A DNA stretch of 64,000 bases, from assembly GCA_964416505.1 (NCBI GenBank), contig CAYQEJ010000002.1:968-64967 (forward strand), written 5' to 3'. Shown one piece after another: positions 1,643-55,886 of the stretch. The translations under genes and the position numbers were made by a program. Origin of the DNA: an uncultured Gammaproteobacteria bacterium (lineage in GTDB: Bacteria > Patescibacteriota > Microgenomatia > Levybacterales > UBA12049). Position 1 is the stretch's first letter. Each line of letters starts with the position of its first letter. Under the pieces are notes generated by a model, which worked only from the letters and a program-made list of their open reading frames with translations, ran no database searches and was not told where the DNA came from.

Positions 1643-1756
1643 TAGAACTATTATATCATATGCATTTAGCCTCAAAATGATTGACTTTGCGACCAAAACT
1701 TGATACACTGCCGACTCTTAACTGCCAACTAGAAATAGTTGGCTTTTTAAGAATTT

Positions 1757-2416
1757 ATGGAACAAAGTTTACTAGCAGGCGTTCTAACGCTCTCCTTAGT
1801 ACTCCTCAATCCTTCTTCAGCGTCCTCCGCGCAATCATCTCAAATAACTGAGGTTAGAGAGGTGCGGGATTATACTGTAAATCAGGGAGAAAGTCTTTCT
1901 AGTATCGCTGAAAGGGAATATGGTTCAGTTGATTTTTGGACAAATATTTGGATTGAAAATCCTTGGATTCAGAATCCAGACAGCATAGAAAAAGATTGGG
2001 TAATTAAATTATCAAAAAACGAACCTGAAAGACCAGCAACTTTGAGCGCTGATCTCAAGGCAAAACTTACAAAACAACTTCCCCAAGTAGAAAAGTCAAA
2101 CATGTCTGGTAATGAGACTCAAACTCTACCTTCTCAATCAAATTATTCAGGCGGAGTCTTAAATGAAGCTCAAATGTCATTCTTGGGAAATTGTGAATCC
2201 GGAATGACGGCAACGAGAAATAGTGGAAATGGCTATTATGGCGCATTTCAGTTTTCATATGGAACATGGCAAAGAATGAACACAGGATACGAACGAGCAG
2301 ACTTAGCTCCTCTTGAAGTTCAAAAAGATGCTGTTCAGAGACTTTTGTCTAGATCAAGCATATTTACTCAATTTCCTGGTTGTGCAGGAAAAATGCAAAA
2401 CCTCGGCCTCTTATAA
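1757..2416 (+). CDS. secreted LysM-domain protein with Rpf-type transglycosylase-like domain
   Basis: N-terminal signal peptide. LysM block YTVNQGESLSSIAEREYGSVDFW...WVIKL. C-terminal CESGMTATRNSGNGYYGAFQFSYGTWQ closely resembles the resuscitation-promoting-factor transglycosylase-like domain. A TTGACT-N17-TACACT promoter lies upstream. Confidence 0.7.
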   Translation: MEQSLLAGVLTLSLVLLNPSSASSAQSSQITEVREVRDYTVNQGESLSSIAEREYGSVDFWTNIWIENPWIQNPDSIEKDWVIKLSKNEPERPATLSADLKAKLTKQLPQVEKSNMSGNETQTLPSQSNYSGGVLNEAQMSFLGNCESGMTATRNSGNGYYGAFQFSYGTWQRMNTGYERADLAPLEVQKDAVQRLLSRSSIFTQFPGCAGKMQNLGLL

Positions 2417-2473
2417 CACCAAATTACTATAGTTCGTTGACTATACCGGGGGAGGTTGCTAGTATATTTATTC

Positions 2474-3241
2474 ATGGGAGGGATAGTAGCAGGAGCTATG
2501 TTTCTTTTATCGGTTTTAACGCCGATTAGTAAGTCGTCTCATCATGAGACTGCTCATATAAGCCCCTCAAAAGCCCCAACTCCCACGCCCACACAAATTC
2601 CCAAACCAACAGAAAAAATTTATAAAGTAGAATCTGGAGATACTTTATTTACTATCGCTGAAGAAAAACTTGGTGGGCAAAAATACTGGATAAATCTATG
2701 GAATCATAATGATTGGATTGAAGATCCAAGACTCATAAGAAGCGGTTGGGAACTTAAAATCCCTATTTCCAAACCAACCGAAGTTGAAAAACCATTAGAA
2801 AAACTCTCTACTATATATAAAGAGATAACTGATCCAAGTCCCACTCCTTCTCCGGAACCCATCAAAGAAGTGGCAGGAGTTACGGCTCCAGCGGGTTCAT
2901 TTGAAAACATATATAAAGAAGCTGGTTCTAAATATGGAGTGCCTTGGGAAATTCTTTATGGACTCCATTTAACCGAAACAGGTCTTAGGGATGGAGCAAT
3001 TTCTAGCGGTTATGGAACCGGTGCGCAGGGACCTATGCAATTCATGCCTGGAACGTGGTCGCTTTATGGAGTTGACGGAAATGGTGATGGCATAAGCGAT
3101 ATAAATAACGCTTCGGATGCTATATATGGAGCTGCAAACTACTTAGCAGCGCATGGCGGAGTAGACCTAGGGCTTAAATCATATGGAGGAGACACACAGA
3201 GCATCCTGAACGCCGCCCGTTCCCGCGGTTGGAGTCAGTAA
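2474..3241 (+). CDS. membrane-anchored LysM + lytic transglycosylase (MltB/SLT-like) protein
   Basis: TM anchor, Pro/Thr linker, LysM (YKVESGDTLFTIAEEKLGGQKYW...WELKIP), then GVPWEILYGLHLTETG...GAQGPMQFMPGTW...AANYL lytic transglycosylase motifs. ATG at 2474 sits 8 nt after TAGTAT of a TTGACT-N17-TAGTAT promoter, suggesting a leaderless start. The upstream TTG at 2456 was rejected as start. Confidence 0.65.
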   Translation: MGGIVAGAMFLLSVLTPISKSSHHETAHISPSKAPTPTPTQIPKPTEKIYKVESGDTLFTIAEEKLGGQKYWINLWNHNDWIEDPRLIRSGWELKIPISKPTEVEKPLEKLSTIYKEITDPSPTPSPEPIKEVAGVTAPAGSFENIYKEAGSKYGVPWEILYGLHLTETGLRDGAISSGYGTGAQGPMQFMPGTWSLYGVDGNGDGISDINNASDAIYGAANYLAAHGGVDLGLKSYGGDTQSILNAARSRGWSQ

Positions 3242-3242
3242 T

Positions 3243-3620
3243 TTAACTTCGGCTCAATGCTATTTCAACTGCTGCGCTTAGCAAATTATATCTTCTGAGA
3301 TCTTGTTCGCGCTCAAGTATTAGCTCACGACTTCTTTCAATTCCAACCATAAGAGGTGCTCTTCCTTGAAACTGCGCTCTAGTAAAATCTATTTCCCCAT
3401 CAGGCAACCTATTCCAGTAGTGAGATCTCAAATATTCAAAATCTGTTCCTTTAAGAGTAGCTCTTAGAATATCTCCTCCAAAGTAGTCCTGGGCTACCAC
3501 AGATGCCACTGCGCAATGACCAAGCATTGGATTTTCTGGAGTCCATAATTCAGGCGCTGAAGATGTTTCCCTGGCTACACTCACAGCTAAAGCGGTCTTA
3601 AATGCTTCTCTACTTATCAT
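3243..3620 (-). CDS. hypothetical conserved protein (125 aa)
   Basis: The ORF track's N-terminus overlaps tRNA-Gly. Start moved to the internal Met (MISREAFK...). No family assigned. Confidence 0.4.
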   Translation of the reverse strand: MISREAFKTALAVSVARETSSAPELWTPENPMLGHCAVASVVAQDYFGGDILRATLKGTDFEYLRSHYWNRLPDGEIDFTRAQFQGRAPLMVGIERSRELILEREQDLRRYNLLSAAVEIALSRS

Positions 3621-3633
3621 AGATGGGGCGGTG

Positions 3634-3705
3634 AGCGGATGACCGGATTCGAACCGGCGACCTTCTCGTTGGCAACGAGACATTCTACCACTGAACTACA
3701 TCCGC
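3634..3705 (-). tRNA. tRNA-Gly (anticodon GCC)
   Basis: The reverse complement folds as GCGGATG/CATCCGC acceptor, D-arm AGTTCAGTGGTAGAA, anticodon stem-loop CTCGT-TTGCCAA-ACGAG, T-arm GCCGGTTCGAATCCGGT. CCA is not encoded. Confidence 0.85.
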
Positions 3706-3809
3706 GCTTTGCAAGTATAGCAAAATAGCCTCAACTACTCAATTATCAAATAGTTTGAACTACTTTGTTCGGTTGACAGATTCCGTCTAAAAATGCCAAA
3801 ATAAGTTTC

Positions 3810-4382
3810 ATGAAAAAACTCGCTGTCCTTGGAGGTTTTTTTCTAGGTACTCCTCTTTTCCTTTTCCTAACACTTTCTTATCTTTTGCAAATCTCCTCTC
3901 TTAAGGGAAGTGGTGCAGTTCTATCCGAAAGCACTCAAGGAATTGCTTATGCAGCTCTTCCTCCAAACGACAATACTATCGAGGGAACAGTCGTTCAGGA
4001 AGATTCCAAAGTTGAGATCGTAAGACAATTTTTAGCTAAATATGATTCACCCTTAGCTGAATATGCTCCAGATATAATTGCTGCATCCAATCGATATGAT
4101 ATAGATTACAGATTGCTACCAGCCATAGCTATGCAAGAATCTATTGGCTGCAAGAGAATAATAAAAGATTCAAATAATTGCTGGGGTTGGGGAATCTATG
4201 GAGGAAAAGTTACTAAATTCAACAATTTTCCAGAGGCTATAGAAACAATTACAAAAACTCTCTCTACGAAATACAGAGACCATGGACTAGTAACTCCATT
4301 TGAAATAGCCAAACTTTATAATCCCCGAAATACAAATAACTGGGCTGAGAACGTTTCTCATTTTATGAACCTCCAAAAGTAA
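3810..4382 (+). CDS. secreted peptidoglycan-hydrolase-like protein (glucosaminidase-like domain), paralog 1
   Basis: Signal/TM N-terminus. Conserved block FLAKYDSPLAEYAPDIIAASNRYDIDYRLLPAIAMQESIGCK...NCWGWGIYGG shared with the downstream paralog. Family assignment is tentative. Confidence 0.45.
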   Translation: MKKLAVLGGFFLGTPLFLFLTLSYLLQISSLKGSGAVLSESTQGIAYAALPPNDNTIEGTVVQEDSKVEIVRQFLAKYDSPLAEYAPDIIAASNRYDIDYRLLPAIAMQESIGCKRIIKDSNNCWGWGIYGGKVTKFNNFPEAIETITKTLSTKYRDHGLVTPFEIAKLYNPRNTNNWAENVSHFMNLQK

Positions 4383-4523
4383 TCCTATAGTTGGGTATTG
4401 ACAAATCCTATAGTCTTTGATATACTTCGCAATTAGATCCTAAGGTGCGCCTTTCCAAATGCTCACGTTAGGATTTTTTTTGGCCTAAAAACTTAGAAAC
4501 CCTTTTTAAGTAGGCCAAAAAAT

Positions 4524-5072
4524 ATGAAAAAAATCCTAACAATTTCACTAGCTGTAGTTATGCTTTTAATAGGCACTGGGAAATCTTATGCTTATGAAGC
4601 ATCAGCCTCGTCTGCAAAGCTACAACCTACAATAGTGAGTAAACCATACGACAATAGAGCAGAAGTACTCAGGGGGTTCTTAGAATCTTACGATTCACCT
4701 CTTGCTCCTTATGCCGGAGAATTTGTCTATTATGCAGATAAATACAATCTTGATTGGAGATTAGTTGCATCAATTGCAGGCCTTGAATCAACTTTTGGTA
4801 AAAGAATTCCTTACAACTCATATAACGGATGGGGATGGGGTATTTACGGAGATAATATGATCAGATTTAATTCTTGGTCTGAAGGAATCGAAACAATTTC
4901 AAAGGGAATTCGTGATAGATACCTTAAAGAAGGACAATATTCAGATCCATATGTAATTGGCCCAACTTATGCTGCTTCTCCTACATGGGCAGTTAGAGTA
5001 ACATTTTTCATGAATAAAATGGAGCAGTATAGAATAAAAAACGGTAAATCTACCCTTGCCCTTGCTCTATAA
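4524..5072 (+). CDS. secreted peptidoglycan-hydrolase-like protein, paralog 2 (tandem duplicate of 3810-4382)
   Basis: Signal peptide. FLESYDSPLAPYAGEFVYYADKYNLDWRLVASIAGLESTFGK...NGWGWGIYGD is collinear with paralog 1. Confidence 0.45.
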   Translation: MKKILTISLAVVMLLIGTGKSYAYEASASSAKLQPTIVSKPYDNRAEVLRGFLESYDSPLAPYAGEFVYYADKYNLDWRLVASIAGLESTFGKRIPYNSYNGWGWGIYGDNMIRFNSWSEGIETISKGIRDRYLKEGQYSDPYVIGPTYAASPTWAVRVTFFMNKMEQYRIKNGKSTLALAL

Positions 5073-5206
5073 AGCTTGTCCGCAATTTTTAAATAAGTTA
5101 TAATCAAGCATAGAAATTGTGCGAAATCGTTGGCTTTTGAGCTCCGATTTTGCAGTCCCTAAAGGAAAATCGTTGGGAAAAACGCGAGTTTTGTCCCACA
5201 TGACGG

Positions 5207-5290
5207 GCGGATGTGGTGGAATGGTAGACACGCAAGGTTTAGGACCTTGTGCCGTTAAAAGCATGGGGGTTCGAGTCCTCTCATCCGCAC
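5207..5290 (+). tRNA. tRNA-Leu (anticodon TAG)
   Basis: GCGGATG acceptor, GTGGAATGGTAGACAC D-arm, anticodon loop TTTAGGA, long variable arm, GGGGGTTCGAGTCCTCT T-arm, CATCCGC-A 3' end. Confidence 0.85.
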
Positions 5291-5347
5291 TCTTATACTA
5301 CTTGCTTATTTTTAGATAACACGCTAGAATTATAGGCCTAAGTTTAT

Positions 5348-6238: not shown

Positions 6239-6246
6239 TAAATTAG

Positions 6247-6938: not shown

Positions 6939-7056
6939 ATGCAAAAAATTAAAAATCTTATTCTCGTCATTCTTAACTCCTTGAAGGGAGGGAAGTCTGA
7001 CGCGTAAATAAGATAGATACGCAAAAAGACAAGCCTCCCAAACGGGAGGTTTTTTT
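6939..7056 (+). promoter_or_regulatory. leader-peptide + terminator module, copy 1 (candidate attenuator)
   Basis: A TTGACT-N17-TAATAT promoter lies at 6902-6930. A 22-codon ORF MQKIKNLILVILNSLKGGKSDA* (6939-7007) is rich in Ile/Leu/Val. An upstream GGGAGGG could pair with the CCTCCC arm of the downstream terminator GCCTCCC-AAAC-GGGAGGT-T7 (7033-7056). Confidence 0.35.
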
Positions 7057-7069
7057 GTGGTTAAAAATT

Positions 7070-7429: not shown

Positions 7430-7431
7430 TT

Positions 7432-10372: not shown

Positions 10373-10418
10373 TCCCAAACAATTGCTAATTTGAGGCTAT
10401 ACTGCTAAAATCCGATTC

Positions 10419-12173
10419 ATGAATAATATTGATCTCTCCAGCATAAGACATTCCACTGCTCATCTTCTGGCAGCTGCTATTTTAAAACTCTATCCTGATA
10501 CGAAATTAACTATTGGCCCAGCAATTGAAAATGGTTTTTATTATGATTTAGATTTTTCAAATCCAATTTCAGAAAATGATCTCCCTAAAATTGAAGAAGA
10601 AATGAGAAGAATACTCCCAAGCTGGAATTCTTTTTCACATAGAGAAGTTTCCGATCAAGAAGCAAAGGAATTCTATAAAAATAATCAATACAAACTAGAG
10701 CTAATAGATGAAATTGTAGAAAAGGGTGAAAAAATAACTTTTTATAAAGCGGGAGAATTTGAAGATCTTTGCCGCGGCGGACATAGCGAGAACCCCTCAG
10801 AAGAAATTGGCGCATTTAAGCTTCTTTCTATCGCTGGTGCCTATTGGAGAGGAAGCGAAAAAAACAAAATGCTCACTCGTATTTACGGAACTGCTTTTTC
10901 AACTCAGAAAGAACTAGATGAGTACTTAGTAATGCTCGAAGAAGCAAAGAAAAGAGATCATAAAAAATTAGGTTTAGAATTAGATCTTTTCATGTTTCAT
11001 GAAACATCTCCAGGAATGCCATACTGGCTACCTAAAGGATTTGCTCTATATAATTCGCTTCTTAATTTTTCAAGAGAAGTTCACAAGAAATATAGATATC
11101 AAGAAATCGCAACTCCAATTCTAAACAAAAAAGATCTATATATGACTTCAGGTCACTGGTCTCATTATAGAGATGATATGTTCCTGTCTCCAATGTCTTT
11201 CATAAGAGATGATTCAAAAGAACTTCTGGAGGGTGGAGAAGTATTCGGCATCAAACCAATGAACTGTCCAAATGCTATGAATGTATTTTCGATGACAATT
11301 AGATCTTATAAAAATCTGCCTCTTCGTTTTTCAGAAACTTCAGCTCTCCATAGATTTGAGCCTTCAGGCACACTAAATGGACTTTTCAGAGCAAGAGAAT
11401 TCCACCAAGACGACGCTCATATTTTCCTCATGACTTCTCAAGTAGAAGATGAATTTCAAAAAATAATGGAGATGATCGAAGAACTCTATGGCGCATTCAA
11501 TCTTTCATATAGGCTTAGATTTGGTACAAGACCTGAAAACTTCATGGGCGAAAGTAAAGATTGGGACGAAGCCGAAGATGCATTAAAATCAGTGCTTGAT
11601 AAATCGGGCAAAGAATACGTAACTGAAGAAGGAGAAGGAGCATTCTACGGACCAAAGATAGATATTCTTATGAAAGATTCACTAGGACGTGAATGGCAAA
11701 CAGGAACAATTCAATTAGATTTCCAACAACCCAAAAATTTCAAACTAGAATATATTGATGAAAGCGGAAAAACTACTACCCCTGTTGTTCTTCATAGAGC
11801 CCTATTTGGCTCATTTGAAAGATTTCTAGGAATTCTTTTAGAACATTTTGCAGGTATACTCCCAATTTGGCTTTCTCCTATTCAAGTAATAATTCTACCA
11901 ATAGCAGATAAGCATAATGATTTCTCTCAAAATTTAGTAAATGAGCTTAGAAAAAATGGTATCCGAGCAGAGGTTGATTCTCGAAGTGAGAGACTTCAAC
12001 TTAAAATAAGAGAAGCGACTTTGCAAAAGATTCCATATTTAGGTATAATAGGGGACAAAGAAATTGAAAAAAATTCAGTTTCAGTTAGAGCTTTAGATGG
12101 GGAAGATTTAGGAAGTTTAAATCTTTCTCATTTTTTAGAAAAGCTAAAAGATCAAATTGATAAAAAAGTCTAA
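10419..12173 (+). CDS. thrS: threonyl-tRNA synthetase (short form, no N-terminal TGS domain)
   Basis: Class II aaRS core with ThrRS editing/catalytic motifs (HSTAHLLAAAI..., FHQDDAHIF, anticodon-binding C-terminus). Confidence 0.9.
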   Translation: MNNIDLSSIRHSTAHLLAAAILKLYPDTKLTIGPAIENGFYYDLDFSNPISENDLPKIEEEMRRILPSWNSFSHREVSDQEAKEFYKNNQYKLELIDEIVEKGEKITFYKAGEFEDLCRGGHSENPSEEIGAFKLLSIAGAYWRGSEKNKMLTRIYGTAFSTQKELDEYLVMLEEAKKRDHKKLGLELDLFMFHETSPGMPYWLPKGFALYNSLLNFSREVHKKYRYQEIATPILNKKDLYMTSGHWSHYRDDMFLSPMSFIRDDSKELLEGGEVFGIKPMNCPNAMNVFSMTIRSYKNLPLRFSETSALHRFEPSGTLNGLFRAREFHQDDAHIFLMTSQVEDEFQKIMEMIEELYGAFNLSYRLRFGTRPENFMGESKDWDEAEDALKSVLDKSGKEYVTEEGEGAFYGPKIDILMKDSLGREWQTGTIQLDFQQPKNFKLEYIDESGKTTTPVVLHRALFGSFERFLGILLEHFAGILPIWLSPIQVIILPIADKHNDFSQNLVNELRKNGIRAEVDSRSERLQLKIREATLQKIPYLGIIGDKEIEKNSVSVRALDGEDLGSLNLSHFLEKLKDQIDKKV

Positions 12174-14400: not shown

Positions 14401-14513
14401 ATGTTTTTTATGATTAAAGGTTTGAATTTTGGTTTTTACTTTACACACCCTACGGGGAGGTAACGTATTGCCAAAATAAAAGGCAATAAGCCTCCCAAAC
14501 GGGAGGTTTTTTT
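14401..14513 (+). promoter_or_regulatory. Phe-rich leader peptide + rho-independent terminator (candidate pheA attenuator), module copy 2
   Basis: Leader ORF atg ttt ttt atg att aaa ggt ttg aat ttt ggt ttt tac ttt aca cac cct acg ggg agg taa (MFFMIKGLNFGFYFTHPTGR*, 5 Phe). GGGGAGG just before the stop can pair with the CCTCCC arm of terminator GCCTCCC-AAAC-GGGAGG-T7 (14490-14513). A hairpin TTGCC-aaaataaaa-GGCAA lies between. The terminator segment is identical to the 7033-7056 copy. Confidence 0.45.
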
Positions 14514-14521
14514 GTGTTTAT

Positions 14522-33962: not shown

Positions 33963-34015
33963 ACTAACTTATATTAGTCACAGCAAAACTCTCTTGTCAA
34001 TAGCCTCTATAGAAA

Positions 34016-38068: not shown

Positions 38069-38710
38069 ATGAATACATTTATCATTTCTTCAAAAAATTT
38101 AGAAAAGGGAATAGGGGAGAGTGAAAAATTAATTAAGGGATATAAAATTGACGCTTTTGATATTCAAAAATTAGAATTTGAAAAAGCGCTGGGAATTGAA
38201 GACGTAAGGAAAATTCAGGAAAAAATTTATCTAAAACCTTTCAAAAGTGAAAAAAAAGCAGTAGTCATTATTATGAAAAATGGCGCTACAGTAGATGCTC
38301 AAAATTCCATGTTAAAACTTCTAGAAGAACCCCCAACCACAACGCTTATTTATTTGATTACGGATAATTTCCAATCTTTTCTTCCTACTATTTTATCTCG
38401 CGCAAAAATTATAGAACTTAGAGAAGAATTAGAAGCAAATATAGAAAATCTGGAAAAAATTTTGACATTAGATAAGACAGGAGACAGGCTTTATCTCGCA
38501 CAAGAAGTTTCTAAGGAAAAAGGGGATGCCATCAAATGGCTTGAAGGAGCTATACTAGCGGGTCGTGAAGAAATGTTAAAAACTTCAGATAAAGAAGAGG
38601 CCTTAAAATTCAGGAAGTTAATACACAAACTCGAACTAACTCATTATGATTTAAAAACCACCAACGCCAATCCTCGCCTCGCATTAGAAAACCTATTTCT
38701 AAACCTATAG
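38069..38710 (+). CDS. holB: DNA polymerase III delta-prime-like subunit (small AAA+ lid-type)
   Basis: LKLLEEPP and ILSRA motifs. 213 aa. C-terminal 15 codons (ANPRLALENLFLNL*) are the source of the downstream repeats. Confidence 0.6.
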   Translation: MNTFIISSKNLEKGIGESEKLIKGYKIDAFDIQKLEFEKALGIEDVRKIQEKIYLKPFKSEKKAVVIIMKNGATVDAQNSMLKLLEEPPTTTLIYLITDNFQSFLPTILSRAKIIELREELEANIENLEKILTLDKTGDRLYLAQEVSKEKGDAIKWLEGAILAGREEMLKTSDKEEALKFRKLIHKLELTHYDLKTTNANPRLALENLFLNL

Positions 38711-38721
38711 AAATTTACGCA

Positions 38722-38746
38722 CGCAAGGCCTGGCCTTGCGAGGCTA
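38722..38746. repeat. palindromic hairpin element H1 (CGCAAGGCC-t-GGCCTTGCG + AGGCTA)
   Basis: Perfect 9-bp inverted repeat with 1-nt spacer and no T-run. Related copies at 41312-41342 and 42246-42270. Confidence 0.6.
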
Positions 38747-38771
38747 GAGAACTCATAGTATAATCCGCGCC

Positions 38772-39323
38772 ATGAGTAAAGAAAATTTATTGCACCAAGA
38801 AGATGACTTTAGAAGTGAATTCCGAAGACATTTTCCGTCAGGAACAATAATTCCATTAGAAGCTTCACAAATTAGAGATAGAAGGGTAAGACGTTATTTT
38901 AGAATGGACGACCCAACGGAAGGTGGAGGAGATTTAAATTTTGCAGTTCGACATCCAGATGAAAGCACAACTTATGCTTTTGCAACATATGACCCTGACA
39001 CAACCGTAGTGGGCGAAATGGGTTTTATAGATATAAGTCCCCGTGGACTAGTAGCAGGTTATGGATCAATGATGTTTGGCTGGATAGGTGAAAACGCTGA
39101 GCAACTAATAGCAGAAGTAAGGTGGACAGACACCGTAAGACACATGAGAAGAAGGGGACTTGGAACCAGAAGGCTAGAACTGATGAATGCGTTCGCAAGA
39201 ACTTTTCGCGGTGTTCCTCTTCAATCCGATTGGCCAACTGAATCAGCAACTGGAGTATGGCAAAAACTTGTTAATCAGGAAAGAGCCACAACTACAGAAC
39301 ATGGAGATTTTATTTTCCGCTAG
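38772..39323 (+). CDS. GNAT-family N-acetyltransferase-like protein (cassette 1)
   Basis: Acetyl-CoA-binding motif HMRRRGLGTRRLELMNAFAR (R/Q-x-x-G-x-G/A). TATAAT 7 nt before ATG. GC about 42%. Confidence 0.45.
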   Translation: MSKENLLHQEDDFRSEFRRHFPSGTIIPLEASQIRDRRVRRYFRMDDPTEGGGDLNFAVRHPDESTTYAFATYDPDTTVVGEMGFIDISPRGLVAGYGSMMFGWIGENAEQLIAEVRWTDTVRHMRRRGLGTRRLELMNAFARTFRGVPLQSDWPTESATGVWQKLVNQERATTTEHGDFIFR

Positions 39324-39374
39324 ATATACGCCAACCCCCGCCTCGCATTAGAGAACTTATTTCTAAACCTATAG
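39324..39374 (+). repeat. holB 3'-tail copy B (encodes IYANPRLALENLFLNL* in frame after the cassette-1 stop)
   Basis: 43/47 nt identical to holB 38663-38710. Followed by TTTAGCCTCA and a TATAAT box. Confidence 0.7.
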
Positions 39375-39409
39375 TTTATTTTTAGCCTCACTTCTGATAT
39401 AATTTCGCG

Positions 39410-40036
39410 ATGCATGAACTTGGCCCACGTCCAGGAGTAGACCAGAGATCTCAACAGAGCAGAAGAGACTTTCTCAAAAACGCTGCAAGATTTTCTACTG
39501 GTATAGTTATCGCAAGTGCGCTTCCGGAAATCGAAAAACCGGCTTTTGGTGAATTGAGCAGAATAACTGCTGATGTTACAAGAAAACAAACAGGAAATTC
39601 TGGATTTAGAGATAACATTCTTGAACAGTGTAAAAATAGCCCTGATATACAACAGTGCAGTACGGATTATTTACGCTCACCTGACACTCAGCTATTAACT
39701 GTAGTTTTTGCGCCGATAAATGAAGAATTTCAATACAGAGCGGTGCCATCTTTATTGGTCAGTGCAACTGACAAAAACACAAAAAATCCCTTTAAGGATT
39801 TAGCTGTTGGAACTGGAGGCTTTAAATTTAGCAGAAGAGAACTCGTGGCGGGTGCCATAACTACATTAACTTTCGGATTTTTACATAACGTAACAAATAA
39901 GGGCTTCGACACAAATACAATTCCTGTATCTCAGCTAGCTCTAGGAGCTGTAAATTGGGTATTACAAAGAAGATTTGGAGCACTGGCTCCGATAATTAAT
40001 CATGCTCGATGGAATTATAAGTTTAACAACGAATAA
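39410..40036 (+). CDS. Tat-signal secreted hypothetical protein (cassette 2)
   Basis: Twin-arginine signal SRRDFLKNAARFSTGIVIASALP. Hydrophobic C-terminal region. Confidence 0.45.
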   Translation: MHELGPRPGVDQRSQQSRRDFLKNAARFSTGIVIASALPEIEKPAFGELSRITADVTRKQTGNSGFRDNILEQCKNSPDIQQCSTDYLRSPDTQLLTVVFAPINEEFQYRAVPSLLVSATDKNTKNPFKDLAVGTGGFKFSRRELVAGAITTLTFGFLHNVTNKGFDTNTIPVSQLALGAVNWVLQRRFGALAPIINHARWNYKFNNE

Positions 40037-40045
40037 ACTTATTCC

Positions 40046-40093
40046 TACGCCAATCCTCGCCTCGCCCTCGAAAACCTTTTCCTAAATATTTGA
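40046..40093 (+). repeat. holB 3'-tail copy C (YANPRLALENLFLNI*) fused to TTGACA-N17-TATAAT promoter
   Basis: Differs from holB mostly at synonymous positions (gca tta to gcc ctc, cta ttt cta to ctt ttc cta). Its TGA stop is the TGA of TTGACA (40090-40095). TATAAT at 40113-40118 lies 5 nt before the ATG at 40124. Confidence 0.7.
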
Positions 40094-40123
40094 CACCTAA
40101 TTATCCTGTAGTATAATTACGCT

Positions 40124-41281
40124 ATGGGAAACGAGGGGAACATAAGACCTATTAATCCTAAGGATGCAGCATTTATCTCAAGATTAAGAACTATCGCATC
40201 TCCAACTCCTGTTGTAATTGAGCCATCAATAACTCCTAAAAATCCAGATGCTCCCGATAGAGAAAGGGCAATAAAAGCAACTTTCGAAGCAGCAAATCAA
40301 GCTGTGGGCACTATGCGTCTTGCAGAAGAAATAAGAGACCATCTACTCCCAGGCTGGAGCGTTGAAACGATAGACTCTACCTCTTTAGGATATCAAACAA
40401 GCTATCGTTTTAGTGAACATTCCCCACGTCATGAAGGAGAAGAAATGAGATTTTCTTTTTTTGGAGCAATATTAAAAAATTCCATGGAAGGAAAAGTCAT
40501 CGCAGTAGGATTCGCAGGAGATCCATTCAGTGATTATATATTTGGTCCAGAAGATATCGATAGGGGATTTACTGGTTTATCTTTTGGAGTTTCCTATGCG
40601 GAAGGTAAACCAAATTCAGATACAAATACACTCGCCGAAGCAATAAATGCAATTAGAGGAATAGGGATTGAAGATGTGCGTCATGAACCAGAGCCTAGAT
40701 ATAGATATTTTGACACAACATCGAGGGTAGTCCTTGGTAAAAGATCAAGACAAAGCATAAAATCTAATGAAGAAACTCCGACTGAAGATCAAAGTGATTT
40801 TAATCCTGAAAGTGGAGCTATATTAAAAGACTATTACCCAGCAGAAGGAATGTATGTAGAAAAATTAAGACAAGTTATGGAAGATGGACTCGCAGCAGTT
40901 TTTGAACTACAACCTAATTTACCAGTCCAAGAAAGAAATCGAGAGCTTACACCACATATAATAGACGTTATTAGACAGACCATGTCTCATTATGCTAGCC
41001 TAGGAGCAATGAATGATCGACCCTATGGAGATATTGGAGGCCAATATATAGCTGCAACCGAACGGGGCTACGGAAATTATTTGTCATCCATAACTAGCCT
41101 TCAAGAAGTTGTAACAAAATGGTGGATGGAGGGAGCAGCAAGAATTAGATCTCTTAGAGAGAGCAGGCCTTTGATAATTCCATCAGGAGGAGGAAGATAC
41201 CATACGCCTCCTTCTCCTACATTCCTAGGTCAACCCATAATTCATATTGAAAGACCCTTTGATCCGGATTCTGCCGACTAA
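40124..41281 (+). CDS. hypothetical protein (385 aa, cassette 3)
   Basis: Long ORF with a leaderless-type promoter. No family recognised. Confidence 0.4.
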   Translation: MGNEGNIRPINPKDAAFISRLRTIASPTPVVIEPSITPKNPDAPDRERAIKATFEAANQAVGTMRLAEEIRDHLLPGWSVETIDSTSLGYQTSYRFSEHSPRHEGEEMRFSFFGAILKNSMEGKVIAVGFAGDPFSDYIFGPEDIDRGFTGLSFGVSYAEGKPNSDTNTLAEAINAIRGIGIEDVRHEPEPRYRYFDTTSRVVLGKRSRQSIKSNEETPTEDQSDFNPESGAILKDYYPAEGMYVEKLRQVMEDGLAAVFELQPNLPVQERNRELTPHIIDVIRQTMSHYASLGAMNDRPYGDIGGQYIAATERGYGNYLSSITSLQEVVTKWWMEGAARIRSLRESRPLIIPSGGGRYHTPPSPTFLGQPIIHIERPFDPDSAD

Positions 41282-41311
41282 TCAAAAATTGCTTAAATTC
41301 CCTTTAAATAT

Positions 41312-41342
41312 TAGCCTCGCAAGGCCAGACCTTGCGAGGCTA
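41312..41342. repeat. palindromic hairpin element H2 (TAGCCTCGCAAGG-ccaga-CCTTGCGAGGCTA)
   Basis: 12-bp perfect inverted repeat with 5-nt loop. Contains the TAGCCTC motif in both arms. Confidence 0.6.
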
Positions 41343-41385
41343 TTTGATAATTGAAATAGGGAGATGTATACTACAGGACAATAAA

Positions 41386-42165
41386 ATGTCCAGAGATATT
41401 TACGATCAATTTAGAGCTGCTCAAGAAGCATTAGCTGTAAAAGCAGCAGAAGAAGCAAGAAGATTAAATGAAGCTGCACAAAGAGCAGCTGACGTAGAGG
41501 CTGCAAAAAAAGCTGAAGTAATTAGGGCAGCCAATGAAAAACAACGCTTAAGAGATGAAAAAGTAGCCGCGCAAAGAAAAGAACTAGAACCTGTTGCCCA
41601 ACAACTTCAGGAAATTTTGGAAGCCATTAAAAATCATGATCCAAGGATTCAGGCAGCAAGAGAAAAAGATGTTGCACTAACAACTGCAATTATTGGACAA
41701 ATTGATGATCCTAGATTGTTATTTGTTCTATTCCTAAGATGGGGAAATAAATTTGGGTTATCCCCACAGGAAGTACATCAACTAGAACATCCTAAAAAAG
41801 GACTCATAGCAAAATATTTAGGAGAAGAAACTCCAGACAAAATAATCGGTGAAGATTTCCAGCAGGTAACAGTAACTCTAGGCGTTGACTGGATAAGCAC
41901 TGTGTCCGAACATGGCTTAGCTCCTAGACTAAAAACAGAAGACTTTATTGGAGACAATTCGTTAGTTTTTCCTACGCTGGCTACTGCTATCGAACATCCT
42001 ATGAGTAGATTTGAGTCTTTTGAACTTTTTAACAACAAATATTCAGATACAAAACATTATCAACGAAGAGATAGACAGGGTAGAGGATGGGATATGAGTT
42101 CTGTAGATTTATTTGGAAGAAGAGAATTTGAAAATCAACCTCAAGATCCTGGTGATTCATGGTAA
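41386..42165 (+). CDS. hypothetical coiled-coil protein (cassette 4)
   Basis: Start taken at MSRDIY. A 6-codon uORF, MYTTGQ*, precedes it. N-terminal Ala/Glu/Lys-rich coiled coil. Confidence 0.4.
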   Translation: MSRDIYDQFRAAQEALAVKAAEEARRLNEAAQRAADVEAAKKAEVIRAANEKQRLRDEKVAAQRKELEPVAQQLQEILEAIKNHDPRIQAAREKDVALTTAIIGQIDDPRLLFVLFLRWGNKFGLSPQEVHQLEHPKKGLIAKYLGEETPDKIIGEDFQQVTVTLGVDWISTVSEHGLAPRLKTEDFIGDNSLVFPTLATAIEHPMSRFESFELFNNKYSDTKHYQRRDRQGRGWDMSSVDLFGRREFENQPQDPGDSW

Positions 42166-42178
42166 AACTTTCTTTTCC

Positions 42179-42223
42179 GCCAACCCCCGCCTCACCCTCG
42201 AAAATCTATTTCCAATTATTTGA
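42179..42223 (+). repeat. holB 3'-tail copy D (ANPRLTLENLFPII*) fused to a TTGACAcc -35 element
   Basis: More diverged copy. Again ends in the TGA of TTGACA (42220-42225), followed by hairpin H3 (42246-42270, CGCAAGG-tctgg-CCTTGCG + AGGCTA). Confidence 0.65.
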
Positions 42224-42287
42224 CACCTAAATATCCTGTAGCCACGCAAGGTCTGGCCTTGCGAGGCTAAGAAAAATGTAAAAATTC

Positions 42288-51227: not shown

Positions 51228-51647
51228 ATGAAAAACACTGATAATTTTGAAATAAACTACTGGGGGAAAGACTTCCAAAATATTTACACAGAAGAGGATT
51301 ATTTACCCAAAAGAACTTTTAAACAAAAGCTTTTAATAGTAGTTTCATTCATTTCTGTTTTAGCAATCTTACCAACAACTATATTTACGATCACCACAAT
51401 TAATCAGAATAACGGCGAAAAAATTTCTAGCGCGATCGAAGCTCCAATCCCATCTCCAACTAAAGACGCGGAAATTACTCCAAAAATCGCGAGACCTGAT
51501 GCAGTGGAGATAATTAATAATGATAGTTATTGGAAAATAAGTAAGCGCGCTTGTGGAACAGGTAAATATTACCTTTCTATTCAAGAACAAAATGAAGGAA
51601 AAGCATTATATAAAGGTGAATTTGTAAAAGTAGATTGCTCCCTGTAA
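51228..51647 (+). CDS. hypothetical membrane-anchored protein
   Basis: One TM (LLIVVSFISVLAILPTTIFTI). Confidence 0.4.
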   Translation: MKNTDNFEINYWGKDFQNIYTEEDYLPKRTFKQKLLIVVSFISVLAILPTTIFTITTINQNNGEKISSAIEAPIPSPTKDAEITPKIARPDAVEIINNDSYWKISKRACGTGKYYLSIQEQNEGKALYKGEFVKVDCSL

Positions 51648-51704
51648 GTTAGATTGTCCTCTCTTGACAAACTCCTCCTCAATGTTTCAAGATAAATGTA
51701 TACC

Positions 51705-52487
51705 ATGGAAAGATCTAAAGGGATAGACCTTATTGGTGCTATTGTCGTTTTTTTTGTTCTTCTTTTTGTTTATACCAAATTTATTGGCCCAATTCCTTTT
51801 GCTATAAATAGCACAAACACTGCTACCACAGACGTCTTCCAGTCTCAAGGTAGCGGAAAAGCCTCCGCTGCTCCCGATGAAGCATTGATAAATCTTGGTG
51901 TAACATCTCAAGGATCCAATGTAGAACTAGCACAAAACCAGGCAAATGAAGCCTCCAAAAAAATAATTGACTCACTAAAAAAACAGGGAATTAGCGAAGA
52001 TGAAATTAAAACTACTAATTATTCTATTAACCCAAATTATAGTTTTTCTGGAGAATCCCAAAAAATAATAGGATATTCTGTTTCCCAGAATTTCGAAGTA
52101 AAATCTCCTATTGGAAAGACAAATCAGATTGTAGATTCTGCAACAAGTGCCGGAGCAAATATGATAGGGAATATAATATTTAAATTAAATGATGAAAAAG
52201 AAAAAGAATTAAAAAACCAAGCAAGAAAAGAAGCAGTGGATAATGCAAAAACGTCTGCCGAAGGCCTCGCAAAATCTGCAGGAATGAAATTAGGGAAAAT
52301 AATCAACATAACTGAAACAAACGGAACATCTGGTGTTCCTATGCCATTTGCGGTCGCAACAAAAGCACTAGATTCTTCTCAAGGTGGAGAAATATCATTA
52401 CAAAACTCAACAAGAGAAGTATCAAGTATCACTCCTGGGGAAAGCAATGTCGAGGTAACTGTGATACTAACTTACCAAACAAATTAA
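51705..52487 (+). CDS. SIMPL-domain (DUF541/YggE-like) membrane-anchored protein
   Basis: N-terminal TM then two-lobed SIMPL pattern (LINLGVTSQGS...IIGYSVSQNFEVK...NAKTSAEGLAKSAGMKLGKII). Confidence 0.55.
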   Translation: MERSKGIDLIGAIVVFFVLLFVYTKFIGPIPFAINSTNTATTDVFQSQGSGKASAAPDEALINLGVTSQGSNVELAQNQANEASKKIIDSLKKQGISEDEIKTTNYSINPNYSFSGESQKIIGYSVSQNFEVKSPIGKTNQIVDSATSAGANMIGNIIFKLNDEKEKELKNQARKEAVDNAKTSAEGLAKSAGMKLGKIINITETNGTSGVPMPFAVATKALDSSQGGEISLQNSTREVSSITPGESNVEVTVILTYQTN

Positions 52488-52629
52488 AATGTCCAAGGAC
52501 GAAGTTAAGTTTCAAAAAGCGTTTTTATTACAAATGAAAGCTTCTTTAAAAGGAGATTCCACAGAAGCAAGTAAAGCTCGCTCAATAGTAAATTTCTACA
52601 GAAAAAGAATAGAAGGAAAGAATTAAATA

Positions 52630-53565
52630 TTACTTATCATTTCCACTATGAAATGATCTATGTACCTCTCTTAGCTGCTTGTTTGTTATATGTGTGTAAA
52701 TTTGAGTAGTTGCAATATTTTTATGCCCCAACATTTCCTGAACACTTCTCAAATCTGCTCCATTCGTTAGAAGATCTGTTGCAAAACTGTGTCTTAATGT
52801 ATGAACGGTAGCATCCACCGGAATCCTAGTTTGGCGAACATATTTCTTAACAATCCTTTCCACACTTCTAGCAGTGAGTCTCATTCTTTCCCCATTATTT
52901 TCTTCACTTATTGCACCAGAGTAACGAATAAACATTGGTTTAAAAGGATCTTTTCGATGATTGAGGTATTTTTGTATCCAATCTGCAGCTCTATCTGAAA
53001 CGAACACAATTCTTGATCGTCTACCTTTTCCTATAATTCCAAACTCTTTTCTATCCAGATTAATCTGATCGCGATTAAGACTCACTAACTCAGACACGCG
53101 AAGTCCAGTAGAAAATAAAAGCTCCATTATAGCCCTATCCCTAACACCTTCTTCTTTAGATGTATCGGGTGCTGTAACGAGTCTCTCAACCTGATCTCTT
53201 TCCAAAAACTTAAGAGACCTACTTTCCGTTTTAGGTAAATCTATCTTTGAAGGCTCGAGAGTTTTCTGATCATTTTTTATAAGAAATCTTAAGAACGAGC
53301 GGAGCGCTATTATGTAATAATTCTGAGTAACCCTCTTAAGACCTGCGCCTTTTTCATCTGTCTTATTTGAAAGAAATACTCTGTATTTTCTTATATCAGA
53401 AAGCTCTATATTTTCAAGATTTTTATTTGGTATGTTATCCAAATACCACAGCTTAAATATTTCTAGGTAATGCCTGTAGTCTCTAATAGTAAGCTTGCTG
53501 CAGTTTTTTTCTATTTCTAAATATTCTAGAAAATCTTGAGTTAGCTTTGTAAGTTTTTCATCCAT
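52630..53565 (-). CDS. tyrosine site-specific recombinase (XerC/XerD-like)
   Basis: Core-binding N-domain. Catalytic R...HxxR...Y with RHSFATDLLTNGADLRSVQEMLGHKNIATTQIYTHI. A TTAGCCTC motif lies 19 nt upstream of the start. Confidence 0.8.
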   Translation of the reverse strand: MDEKLTKLTQDFLEYLEIEKNCSKLTIRDYRHYLEIFKLWYLDNIPNKNLENIELSDIRKYRVFLSNKTDEKGAGLKRVTQNYYIIALRSFLRFLIKNDQKTLEPSKIDLPKTESRSLKFLERDQVERLVTAPDTSKEEGVRDRAIMELLFSTGLRVSELVSLNRDQINLDRKEFGIIGKGRRSRIVFVSDRAADWIQKYLNHRKDPFKPMFIRYSGAISEENNGERMRLTARSVERIVKKYVRQTRIPVDATVHTLRHSFATDLLTNGADLRSVQEMLGHKNIATTQIYTHITNKQLREVHRSFHSGNDK

Positions 53566-53848
53566 AATAAATTAATTTAAATTCGAGGCTAATTTTTTAA
53601 AAAAAGAGTCATTAGCAGAAGGAAGGGGAGAGTGCCACGTTTGAAATTTTTCTATATCGAAGTGGATCAAAGAATATCTGATTTTTTTAAACATTTGGAC
53701 AGAGAATAAAAATTAAAAAGTTCAGTGATGCCAATCCATTTTACGACATACACGCGTCGTAAAATAAAATGAATAAAGCAACATTATAAATTTATTATAC
53801 GACGTGAATAATTGATAAGTCAACTGATTTTATTTATAATATGCGACT

Positions 53849-54214
53849 ATGTCATTAGAAGCAATGAATCCAACAGATAAAAAGATAAACCCAAAAATCT
53901 TATCTAGAGCAATTGATGCTTCCATAGCAAGATTAACCGGAAGTCAAATAGTAGAGCCCGGAACAACAATTCATTTTAACGGGAGATACTTTGGAAGCCA
54001 TAAAATTGATTCATCAGGTGAAACTGCACATTTCTATGAAGGACCAGATTTCTCTGATTTTAGGACAAGAAGAGGCTTCATCGTTCAGGGAAAAAAACTG
54101 GAAGGATACTCATACCAAACAGGAACTGACATATTAACCAAATATCCTATTCGTCCAATTGATGCAATACGGATGCTTGATACTATCCCAAACATGACCC
54201 CTAAATCGCGTTAA
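53849..54214 (+). CDS. hypothetical protein (121 aa)
   Basis: ORF inside the candidate element. GC above local background. Confidence 0.35.
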   Translation: MSLEAMNPTDKKINPKILSRAIDASIARLTGSQIVEPGTTIHFNGRYFGSHKIDSSGETAHFYEGPDFSDFRTRRGFIVQGKKLEGYSYQTGTDILTKYPIRPIDAIRMLDTIPNMTPKSR

Positions 54215-54254
54215 TTTGTTTGCATTATAAAAATTGTAATGTTATAAATTATGC

Positions 54255-54938
54255 ATGGAACATTCTGGCGACAGACCCATACCAAACATAAGAGAAAGCT
54301 CTTCGAGCTCAGGAACTACGGGTGAAGTAATACCTCCTCAGCAAGTCCCGACTGCAAAATCAGTAAATCAAGATTTATCCTCAGTTAGAGGCAATTTATC
54401 GAGCCTACAAGCCCCTACGATTAGTTTAGAGGGGTTTAATTTTAGATTTACTACTGATACTCCTTCTAAAGTTGATCAACCTAAAGGATTCGCTGGAAAA
54501 GTTGTTAGTTCTCTAAGAAAATTAAAGGACATATTAGTTGTTAACGATAAACCGGTTCCAATCGAACAGTTAGACGAAAGAACTGTTGCTTACTTGATAC
54601 TGACTAATCAAAGAAATGTTCTCAGAGGATCCAACCCAACACTAATACAACCGTTTAATGCTGCTGATATTCTCAGAGATGCTGGATATATTGCTTTAAA
54701 TCCAAACGCAGATTATGAATCCAAATGGCCAGCTCCCTATACAAGAGCCCTACATGTCCTACGATCTCTTCGGGATAATGGTGCTATAGAATTTCTAGAA
54801 CCTGATCAAGATCATGCCCACCGAAATCCAGGATACCGAGTACTTCCTGAGCAAGCTCCACTCCTTATGGAGCTAGCTAAAACAGCCAGCCAGACAGATA
54901 AAAGATTTGATCCTAAAAGCCTAACACCTTTAAAATAG
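54255..54938 (+). CDS. hypothetical protein (227 aa)
   Basis: ORF inside the candidate element. Confidence 0.35.
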   Translation: MEHSGDRPIPNIRESSSSSGTTGEVIPPQQVPTAKSVNQDLSSVRGNLSSLQAPTISLEGFNFRFTTDTPSKVDQPKGFAGKVVSSLRKLKDILVVNDKPVPIEQLDERTVAYLILTNQRNVLRGSNPTLIQPFNAADILRDAGYIALNPNADYESKWPAPYTRALHVLRSLRDNGAIEFLEPDQDHAHRNPGYRVLPEQAPLLMELAKTASQTDKRFDPKSLTPLK

Positions 54939-55886
54939 ACCTCTCCATGCGTAGATGAGTACGATAGTATTCAAATTTTAGCTTCATTTAGCCTCAAAAT
55001 AATTTATTTCATAAAACCTATAGCGGGGGATAGCAGAAAAATTAAGCAATTGGAAAATATAGAGAGAAATCCATGCCAATAATAAAACGAAATTTAAAAA
55101 TTTAAATAAAATGGAGAAAAAAATTGGTAAGGAAAATGGGTCTTCTCCGGGAATTTAGCCTCCGTGACGTCGTAAAAGTATTATTCTACGACATAATCAA
55201 TCTATACTTCCTAGTGCCTAATTTGTCCAAATTTTGTTATAGAAAGACATCTAGAGGAACGTAGTAAATATTCCTACTCTTATTGCTTAAGTAATACCTC
55301 TTCCTTTCCTAAGTAAACGATAATATCTATAAATTAGCCTATGTTACAAAGCCCCTCCTCTGAGTTATCCACATGTGTTTTATTTAGCTTGTTAAATCAA
55401 TCTAATCGCATTATTTTAGCCTCAAAATATAACAAGAAATAACGTTCGTATTTTTTTCGATTTGAAAACAACAAGGTATTAAAACGAGGAGGAAGTACTA
55501 GCGCATGAAGTATAATCTTAGGGATAATTACCGAGATTCAGCTCCGTGTCAATTAACCATACACCACTCTCCATAAGAGATATGAGCGTGTCCACAGGCT
55601 CGTGAAAATTTACTTAAAAGCTCGTGAAATTACGACATGAGACCATTTTTTACCCATAAATATGTCCTATAATATTTAACTAAATATATCAAACTATATC
55701 ATCACTACCTGTATCAAACTATATCATTTAGCCACAACACCCTCTCCTCTTCCCTGTCTTCAGTTGACCATTTTTTTATAAACAAATTTAGCCTCAAATT
55801 ATGCGTAAATAATTAATTCCCACTTAGCCTCTAAATCAATTTAAATATAAGGGTTTGTAGCTTAAAATCTCTTCTCCACTTTCCTA

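Follow-up and report, generated by a model that had tools for sequence, protein, structure and literature searches.

Accessory sites that flank a recombination core at fixed distances and shape its synapse, whether bound by other proteins or serving as additional repeats for the recombinase, are found at the plasmid Xer sites cer and psi (with ArgR/PepA and ArcA), in the arms of lambda attP (IHF, Xis and Fis) and at attI (DR1 and DR2); at cer/psi the accessory DNA comprises ~180 bp and lies on one side of the core only. For the Candidate Phyla Radiation (CPR, or Patescibacteria), with its tiny genomes and few regulators, we know of no experimental work on replication termination, dimer resolution or gene regulation, and a literature search found no paper joining 'Candidate Phyla Radiation' with Xer and none containing the 18-mer that is described below. 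The locus considered here lies in a 64-kb stretch of DNA (64,000 nucleotides, positions 968 to 64,967 of contig CAYQEJ010000002.1; hereafter, the window) that is filed under an uncultured Gammaproteobacteria bacterium and placed by GTDB in the Levybacterales of the Patescibacteriota. A 9-bp box, TTAGCYTCA, recurs there in a conserved non-coding tract that also holds a 28-bp dif-like palindrome, close to the gene for an Xer-family tyrosine recombinase. The locus is thus reminiscent of the XerS/difSL and XerH/difH systems, in which a single Xer gene accompanies conserved imperfect inverted repeats with a 6-bp AT-rich centre at the terminus (PMC1914069, PMC3325230). The difH site is GTATTGAAAA-CTATAA-TTTTCAAAC, its left arm ending in AAAA as does that of the window palindrome (PMC1914069, PMC3325230); for difSL, 31 bp suffice (PMC1914069). 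The interpretation developed below, to which we give something short of an even chance, is that TTAGCYTCA would be a DNA-level recognition box for a sequence-specific protein, located in an Xer/dif nucleoprotein region and reused at promoters.

The box, the tract and the dif-like core

Counted together with its complement GAGGCTA, the heptamer TAGCCTC has 18 copies in the window, against which dinucleotide shuffles yield 6.3 ± 2.2 copies with a maximum of 11 (0 of 100 reach 18), and an order-2 Markov model predicts 4.1. It ranks first for over-representation among all 7-mers of the window, so that after-the-fact picking of the motif is no longer a worry. Fifteen of the 18 copies fall in the 12% of the window that lies outside genes (binomial P = 9e-12), and the number rises to 16 if the open reading frame (ORF) start at 41332 is wrong. 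The original prediction, of at least 13 copies against an expected ~3-4, almost exclusively between genes, is therefore borne out on both counts (18 against the 4-6 expected from shuffles and Markov model), although its list of copies overlooked those at 279, 4233, 10393, 13456 and 34001, and some of its coordinates need correction: the copy placed at 55426-55439 is at 55415-55428, that at 1666-1679 was off by one, and other positions are slightly revised.

The count is made up of two things: a palindromic hairpin repeat (three copies, accounting for five hits) and the 9-bp box TTAGCYTCA in A/T flanks, whose flanked form is typically AAATTTTAGCCTCAAAAA and whose exact 9-mer is TTAGCCTCA. A 14-mer, TTTAGCCTCAAAAT, is present exactly at 1665-1678, 54987-55000 and 55415-55428, with one mismatch at 55787-55800 and with two mismatches each at 55823-55836 and, on the minus strand, at 10388-10401. 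A looser pattern, TTAGCCTCAAA with up to two mismatches, occurs 35 times in the window against 37 expected; since it is not enriched, only the near-exact box is meaningful. That result, and the three or four of the 18 copies that look incidental and have no special context (279, 4233, 13456 and perhaps 34001), are what could be said for dismissing the motif as a product of chance or base composition, such as CCTC of anti-Shine-Dalgarno type in AT-rich spacers. The shuffle, Markov and intergenic statistics speak against such an artefact, as does positional conservation in ~100 independent genomes, which refutes it for the tract copies; we find it hardly credible.

The box is concentrated in a tract (54939-55886) that separates a hypothetical gene (54255-54938, plus strand) from a DUF5656 gene (55887-56690, minus strand) and contains no ORF of 80 or more amino acids. 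Nine exact or degenerate boxes lie within it, all on the plus strand. The clustering had been noticed before; the number of exact heptamers, put at four, is five (54989, 55156, 55417, 55789 and 55825). The degenerate boxes are at 54978 (TTAGCTTCA), 55334 (TTAGCCTAT), 55384 (TTAGCTTGT) and 55728 (TTAGCCACA). Proceeding from left to right, a tandem pair, TTAGCTTCA-T-TTAGCCTCA, occupies 54978-54996, its two members 10 bp apart and ~180-190 bp to the left of the dif-like core; a box TTAGCCTCC at 55155-55163 is separated by 3 bp from the core's left arm, and the homologous position in other lineages has (G/T)AGCCTG. At ~+250 from the core (55383-55424), a palindrome TTTAGCTTG-N6-CAATCTAA is followed by the box TTAGCCTCA at 55416-55424. 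The variant TTAGCCACA at 55728-55736 directly follows ACTATATCA (other lineages have GAGGCTAA there, in the opposite orientation), and two distal boxes, TTAGCCTCA at 55788-55796 and TTAGCCTCT at 55824-55832, close the series at 55788-55832.

The best-conserved element of the tract is not the box. It is the plus-strand palindrome ACGTCGTAAAA-GTATTA-TTCTACGACAT at 55167-55194, 28 bp in an 11-6-11 arrangement, with arms that in inverted orientation are identical at 9 of 11 positions in the window and at 8 of 11 in the consensus of related loci (...TTGTGCGACAT). It is almost invariant, forms the block of highest information in the tract, and is present once in the window and once in each of 103 non-redundant related loci (defined below); a search of these loci for a second core site with up to eight mismatches returned nothing except one weak hit. 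Both arms match, at 10 of 11 positions, what we take to be the XerC-arm part of the general dif consensus. A dif site has ~28-31 bp, with two ~11-bp inverted arms around a centre of 6-8 bp, and the 28-bp core has this form; its geometry places it with the tyrosine-recombinase cores of the type of dif, difSL and difH (PMC1914069, PMC3325230). The cognate Xer-family tyrosine recombinase that a dif site also calls for is found in the minus-strand gene at 52630-53565. The palindrome is thus the probable core site of the neighbouring recombinase, distinct from TAGCCTC; that it functions as a dif site we infer from this architecture and from the Xer neighbour.

The recombinase itself has 311 amino acids and is a standard two-domain protein (Pfam Phage_integrase, 150 bits, and SAM_1). 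Its NCBIfam scores for XerC (258 bits, equivalog cut-off 335) and XerD (257 bits, cut-off 330) are both below cut-off; that for XerA, 214 bits, is under its cut-off and near it, and that for XerS is 141 bits. Homologues that are 52-87% identical stand beside the core in 60 loci. In the window a box, TTAGCCTCG, lies on the minus strand at 53584-53592, in the spacer of the putative xer promoter and 19 nt upstream of the recombinase ATG, exactly where the original prediction had put it. Most other lineages have at that place a half-site of the core, ATTGTRCGAC (GTCGYACAAT on the gene strand), which overlaps the -10 region of that gene's promoter just upstream of a start of leaderless type. This overlap suggests autoregulation and would tie the half-site sequence to the recombinase. 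Isolated half-sites (TRCGACRT) also occur away from the core: there are three at 53739-53805, in the variable segment between recombinase and tract (TTTTACGACAT-ACAC-GCGTCGTAAAA at 53739-53764, two of the three being back to back, and TTATACGACGT at 53795-53805), and one at 55631-55638; some of the related loci have two or three such half-sites in tandem units of ~35 nt.

The original prediction had offered the motif as a recognition site for either a regulator or the tyrosine recombinase. Its behaviour as a protein site and its clustering beside the recombinase gene uphold the general proposal; as the site of recombination it does not stand, because the likely core is the different sequence at 55167-55194 and it is the TRCGAC half-sites that overlap the recombinase promoter in most related genomes. 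There is nevertheless a modified version, which we rank second and regard as unlikely, in which the box is an accessory or degenerate half-site of the Xer recombinase itself and the whole tract is a multi-site recombinase-binding region; such a site would be comparable to the additional direct repeats of attI or to the sites bound by XerD alone near the Bacillus subtilis terminus. The box at 55155-55163 abuts the left arm of the core, which begins at 55167; in one of the two closest genomes (L002) a half-site and a reversed box are adjacent (TTGCGACGTCGAGGCTAAAA); and the two motifs replace one another at the xer promoter (ATTGTRCGAC in others, TTAGCCTCG in the window) and at +460 (GAGGCTAA in others, TTACGACAT in the window). 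In addition, TAGCCTCAAAA has 6 of 11 positions in common with the arm ACGTCGTAAAA. The five differing arm positions (1, 2, 4, 6 and 7) tell against this version, however: of GTCG the box keeps only G3 and C5, and it has TC instead of GT at 6-7. The two motifs are also separately and stably conserved across lineages, and the recombinase has no extra DNA-binding domain.

Conservation of the tract and its place in the chromosome

An 18-mer of the core, CGTCGTAAAAGTATTATT, is the best-conserved block of the tract. It is found exactly in at least 120 metagenome contigs, 107 of those listed also having the extended signature, and the counts for related loci given in this text refer to 103 non-redundant loci among the matches listed (L081-L200). 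Long contigs with the site include CAWBPM010000002.1 (751 kb), Ga0209515_10000002 (725 kb) and Ga0209514_10000016 (721 kb). The gene order around it is constant in ~100 metagenome contigs: a SIMPL gene, the Xer-like recombinase on the minus strand, 0.24-5.5 kb of variable DNA, the element, a further 0.3-1.6 kb, and then DUF5656, YebC, TPR and LytR_C genes. The ~950-bp non-coding tract, which it had seemed worth checking as an island boundary, is instead a deeply conserved syntenic region.

By YebC, the closest genomes are two metagenome-assembled genomes (MAGs; L001, CAYORA010000001.1, and L002, CAZMGC010000002.1) at 85-86% identity, followed by a Candidatus Levybacteria MAG at 57%. Both of the close MAGs are titled 'uncultured Gammaproteobacteria'; their gene content and synteny match those of the CPR-type window, so that mislabelling of the bins is probable. 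In L001 the dif-like core is immediately followed by a run of N. The window itself has a G+C content of 30-42% in 2-kb steps (mostly 33-39%), single scattered tRNA genes, and the Pfam families DUF5656 and DUF5660; with these relatives it is tentatively placed among CPR genomes of Microgenomates type. An exact-sequence search of public assemblies with its threonyl-tRNA synthetase matched no record. The tract aligns over its full length with L002 (72% identity), over the first 280 bp with L001, and in blocks with a third locus, L003; ~72% is the same level of identity to the close MAGs as that of the neighbouring genes, and tract blocks are still recognizable in the Levybacteria MAG. TAGCCTC lies in the homologous tract in two of its three hits in one close MAG and in all four in the other. 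The tandem pair is kept in L001, L002 and L003, and the first of the distal boxes is kept in L002 as TTAGCTTCA.

Across the related loci, TAGCCTC has a density of 1.22/kb in the tract (-350 to +700 relative to the core) as against 0.075/kb in 600 kb of flanking DNA, a 16-fold difference, and a TTAGCYTS box occurs one or more times in the tracts of 84 of the 103 loci. The tandem pair generates two peaks 10 bp apart, at -191 to -188 and at -183 to -178, and CCYATAGT(AGGGGA) is conserved at -153 to -149. A box-like AGCCT adjoins the left arm of the core in most lineages. Downstream, a module composed of the palindrome TTTAGATTG-N6-CAATCTAAA and a box recurs at +244 to +253, with the box peak in 25 loci; its spacing from the core is kept within a few nt even though the DNA between is unalignable (random-level identity, 0.31). 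On both sides of the core, then, the distance between box and core is held within ~2-4 nt. Orientation is free: the box points in opposite directions in different lineages at three homologous places, which follow the palindrome, the second GTGAAA and ACTATATCA respectively, and the copies at +375 to +650 are mostly reversed. Polar terminus elements such as Ter or FtsK-orienting polar sequences (KOPS) have a fixed polarity relative to the terminus, reversed between its two sides, which the box, lying in either orientation at homologous positions and in the same orientation at -185 and +250, does not have.

Beyond the conserved block, 91% of the coding DNA to the left of the tract points right and 91% of that to the right points left, as expected at a replication terminus, and the tract would lie at the probable terminus. 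Skews at four-fold degenerate sites are strand-constant: for genes on the plus and minus strands they are -0.23 and +0.04 to the left of the tract and -0.24 and +0.09 to its right, and both GC4 and TA4 skews fit a 'no switch' model. Plus-strand genes thus have more C than G (~-0.23) and minus-strand genes at least as much G as C (+0.04 to +0.09) on both sides of the tract, in the window as in the related loci. This pattern is probably driven by codon selection.

The tract holds one further conserved element, a perfect canonical DnaA box, TTATCCACA, present as a single copy at 55365-55373 on the plus strand. Perfect copies number 66, in the tracts of 61 of the 103 loci, all on the plus strand and none in the flanks; with one mismatch allowed, tracts have a mean of 1.0 DnaA boxes, and 42 of 74 complete tracts have exactly one. 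In most cases two GTGAAAA repeats and a CCTATAAT(TATAGG) palindrome flank this DnaA box, which lies where the genes converge. These facts bring up a different explanation, according to which TTAGCYTCA would be a divergent DnaA box (TTAGCCTCA matches TTATCCACA at 7 of 9 positions) and the tract an origin or a datA-like titration locus. The single orientation of the perfect DnaA box and its absence from flanks agree with it, and there are intermediate sequences (TTAGCCACA at 55728 and TTATCCTCA at 54375). It is decidedly unlikely all the same: there is only about one canonical box per tract; G4 and T7, by which the box differs, are themselves conserved; and the boxes flip between lineages, which the DnaA box never does. 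Convergence of the genes on each side, and the absence of dnaA and dnaN from the 64-kb window, point the same way. Two narrower candidates were rejected. An oriC would have a cluster of DnaA boxes among divergent genes, whereas the tract has about one box where genes converge; and TTAGCCTCA differs from TTATNCACA by two mismatches (T4G and A7T), one more than allowed, both at positions conserved in the box logo.

It is very unlikely that the tract is transcribed into one or more non-coding RNAs in which the boxes serve as conserved single-stranded motifs. In its favour, block lengths are kept while the sequence between them varies, promoter-like sequences and T-runs lie near the core, and there are CU-rich stretches. 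Rfam searches of the whole window at gathering threshold and of the tract at E ≤ 10 returned only tRNAs elsewhere and nothing in the tract, the orientation of the boxes flips, and RNAalifold recovered no structure other than the invariant palindrome from 100 sequences around the core (-60 to +95) and 0 pairs from 26-27 sequences covering +20 to +262, on both strands, although poor alignment of the variable tract parts limits this test and weakens the exclusion. Membership in a structured RNA family was rejected on the same findings. No conserved ORF of 20 or more amino acids was found downstream of the core, and a hidden small minus-strand ORF beginning ATG-TCG-... at the core was discarded: many lineages have ACG instead.

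Promoters, hairpins and inserted genes

Away from the tract, the box occurs in the window in or beside sequences that resemble promoters. At 1666-1674 (plus strand, within the 14-mer at 1665-1678) TTAGCCTCA lies between divergent genes, 7 nt upstream of a putative -35 element, TTGACT, of the gene at 1757 on the plus strand, and also over the -35 and spacer of a promoter of leaderless type that would serve a minus-strand gene with a probable start at 1642. (The ORF at 1049-1708 on the minus strand, listed with a GTG start, probably begins with the ATG at 1642, MKTKNLYFLLAFF..., which is signal-peptide-like and leaves 1643-1756 as a divergent promoter region.) A minus-strand box ATAGCCTCA at 10392-10400 is located inside the 17-nt spacer of the predicted thrS promoter (TTGCTA-N17-TAAAAT), with the ATG 7 nt downstream; no T-box leader of thrS is detectable. 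The same sequence on the plus strand at 3725-3733 falls in the spacer of a putative minus-strand tRNA-Gly promoter (TTGAGT-N17-TATACT), and TTAGCCTCA at 39382-39390 (plus strand) precedes by 8 nt a likely extended -10 element, TGATATAAT, of the Rce1-like cassette gene at 39410.

Boxes at 8-12 nt upstream of the -10 are common to the cassette genes at 38772 and 39410 and to the minus-strand gene at 1642; copies just upstream of -35 hexamers are found for the minus-strand copy at 34001 and at 41336 and 1667, the last of these as originally predicted. The motif is not a promoter element of fixed kind: on this fuller list, it is variable in its position relative to -35 and -10 (upstream of -35 or in the spacer) and occurs in both orientations. 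The box was also considered as a -35 element and rejected, its distance to -10-like hexamers ranging from 6 to 16 nt, again in both orientations. The thrS, xer and cassette genes share a good -10 at 6-10 nt upstream of the ATG with no Shine-Dalgarno sequence (10381-10421, 38736-38774, 39392-39412, 40090-40126 and 53565-53600), and leaderless mRNAs seem to be common in this genome.

By their positions, the promoter-proximal boxes would fit an operator for a repressor or an architectural protein. Taken to its limit, this becomes the proposition that the box is the operator of a global transcription factor and the tract a regulatory hub (with the xer promoter and promoters of small RNAs that are not annotated) without any role in recombination or chromosome processing, which we consider no more probable than the half-site version discussed above. 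At least eight putative promoters of the window have the box in the spacer or beside the -35, in both orientations, the ancestral tandem pair is ~85-150 nt upstream of the xer start codon, and the tract contains promoter-like TATAAT/TATAGT elements. An operator would not need a distance to the core that is kept within ~2-4 nt even across unalignable DNA, however, and in the relatives the box is at background density outside the tract.

The hairpins are a separate matter. Copy 2, at 41311-41342, is a perfect 13-bp stem, TTAGCCTCGCAAGG-CCAGA-CCTTGCGAGGCTA (-24.5 kcal/mol, z = -7.0); copy 3, at 42238-42269, is its reverse complement with one arm mismatch (-20.7 kcal/mol); and copy 1, at 38719-38746 (-16.3 kcal/mol), has one exact GAGGCTA arm, its 3' arm overlapping the -35 of the promoter of the gene at 38772. 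The original prediction that TAGCCTC forms the outer arms of these hairpins thus applies fully to copy 2; the other two have a single exact arm each. The link that had been drawn between hairpins and box is not sustained: the only sequence in common is the 8-mer TTAGCCTC, which the arms of an independent palindromic repeat happen to carry or have captured.

Behind holB, the gene for DNA polymerase III delta', comes an array of single-gene cassettes (38069-42270) that contains all three hairpins; every cassette is closed by a repeat of the holB 3' end. This direct repeat of 47-77 nt (encoding ...ANPRLALENLFLNL*) is found at 38664, 39328, 40047 and 42177, the differences being synonymous in frame, and after each copy come a promoter and one gene (183 amino acids; the Rce1-like 208; 385 plus 277). 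Repeats 2 and 3 keep the frame of the preceding ORF but stand behind a stop codon. The array looks as if genes had been inserted serially into the 3' end of holB, the gene end being regenerated. An assignment of the hairpins to integron attC sites was rejected: the stems are perfect or nearly so, without extrahelical bases or R and L boxes, and with the integron-integrase model the recombinase scores 113 bits, where the cut-off is 265.

The segment that separates the recombinase promoter from the box pair (53679-54942 in the window, 11809-13528 in L001) ranges from 0 to 5 kb and contains different, mostly uncharacterized genes in different lineages. Of those in the window, hyp121 is only weakly matched (28%) in L001 and hyp227 has no match; L001 and L002 both have a gene for an SH3-domain protein between recombinase and tract. 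Pfam and PHROGs searches with the genes inserted there and with the cassette genes yielded nothing beyond the SH3 domain. The segment is a possible insertion hot spot, one without a second full core site. An IMEX (a mobile element that integrates by making use of Xer), with two flanking dif copies, was dismissed: the variable genes are found between xer promoter and box pair and not at the core, and no locus has a second full site. Two further kinds of repeat were noticed in the window: a 33-nt sequence, AAGCCTCCCAAACGGGAGGTTTTTTTGTG, at 7031-7063 and 14488-14520 (97% identical), forms an intrinsic-terminator hairpin with a T-run at two gene ends, and at the right window edge a Pro/Gly-rich repeated coding region (63638-63970) is internally repeated, with 58-nt copies at 63674 and 63857 (91%) and others of 44 nt at 63741 and 63810.

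A proposed recognition box in a probable Xer/dif region, and its counterparts elsewhere

The observed properties of the box are that it is enriched, deeply conserved, specific to the tract, placed at a fixed distance from the palindrome and indifferent to orientation. Conservation of sequence without covariation, independence of orientation and constrained spacing from the core together make the box behave like a protein-binding DNA site within a stereospecific complex, and unlike an RNA, a Ter or KOPS element, or a -35 element. The preferred reading of these properties is a recognition box for a sequence-specific protein in an Xer/dif nucleoprotein region. Proteins bound at the tandem pair (~-185), at the box beside the left arm and at the box at ~+250 might bend or bridge the DNA; like accessory sequences at other tyrosine-recombinase sites, they might in this way assemble the Xer synaptic complex, or control it, and determine how active the adjacent xer promoter is. 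In this genome, the box would in addition have been recruited as an operator-like site at the promoters of tRNA-Gly, thrS, an Rpf-like gene, the cassette genes and xer.

Several observations weigh against all or part of this interpretation. No candidate for the binding protein was found, the only annotated DNA-binding neighbours being the recombinase and the YebC/PmpR-family protein (56691-57431). About 19 of the 103 loci, in distant lineages, have the core without a box. Outside the tract, within the limited flanks available, the heptamer in the related loci is intergenic in 11 of 45 hits where 16% of the DNA is intergenic, which is little enrichment, and use at promoters may therefore be lineage-specific or in part due to chance. 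At four-fold sites the GC skew keeps its sign across the tract, in the window and the pooled loci alike; lacking a switch, the terminus assignment depends by itself on gene orientation and the Xer/dif-like module. And an accessory role of the boxes in recombination is one that we purely infer.

A wider and more doubtful proposition is that CPR bacteria of Microgenomates type would have a ~1-kb terminus region composed of a palindromic dif site, a single Xer recombinase, orientation-independent TTAGCYTCA boxes for an accessory protein at fixed distances and one canonical DnaA box. If this were true, it would point to topological or accessory-factor control of dimer resolution, possibly coupled to DnaA and through it to the cell cycle, rather than purely FtsK/KOPS-guided control. 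Should the box be an accessory site, this would be the first chromosomal Xer site with a conserved accessory architecture on both sides. Whatever its function, the motif has led to an 18-bp sequence shared without change by more than 100 environmental genomes, to a candidate dif/Xer pair and to a short box suitable as bait for its binding protein; the core 18-mer, combined with synteny, also provides a marker with which assemblies of these genomes can be oriented and checked.

How does the locus compare with systems that are better understood? Resemblances to CIRCE, the KorB operator and the parS half-site were set aside, since spacing and context do not fit. The likeness to CIRCE deserves a word because the arms of the hairpins, TTAGCCTC...GAGGCTAA, resemble the CIRCE arms minus one base and also stand as an inverted repeat; the CIRCE operator of HrcA is TTAGCACTC-N9-GAGTGCTAA. 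The spacer here is a 17-nt G+C-rich stem and not 9 nt, there is no downstream chaperone gene, and most boxes are single or direct repeats. The hairpins are like attC sites in being palindromic, in lying between single-gene cassettes and in sharing the window with a tyrosine recombinase; they are unlike them in that the stems are perfect and lack R and L boxes, that only 3 of 5 junctions have a hairpin, and that the boundaries are set by repeats of the holB 3' end. With the DnaA box, TTAGCYTCA shares 7 of 9 positions and the tract, and it differs in its conserved positions 4 and 7, in its variable orientation and in recurring where there is about one canonical DnaA box. XerD-binding sites (XDS) in the Bacillus subtilis terminus, recombinase half-sites that lie singly around dif, unload SMC; such likeness as there is to XDS concerns the TRCGAC half-sites (53739-53805 and 55631-55638) and not the TAGCCTC box.

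The instructive comparisons are with recombination sites proper. Relative to cer, psi, attP and attI, the arrangement at this locus differs in having boxes on both sides of the core and as far as ~650 bp from it, and the sequence of the box matches the site of none of the factors that act there. Relative to difSL and difH, the core is unrelated in sequence, its presumed recombinase scores as a generic XerC/XerD (~257 bits, as against 141 for XerS), and the gene is 0.24-5.5 kb from its site, variable genes lying between the two. Compared with difSL in particular, the flanks of the core are conserved over ~1 kb, repeated boxes included.

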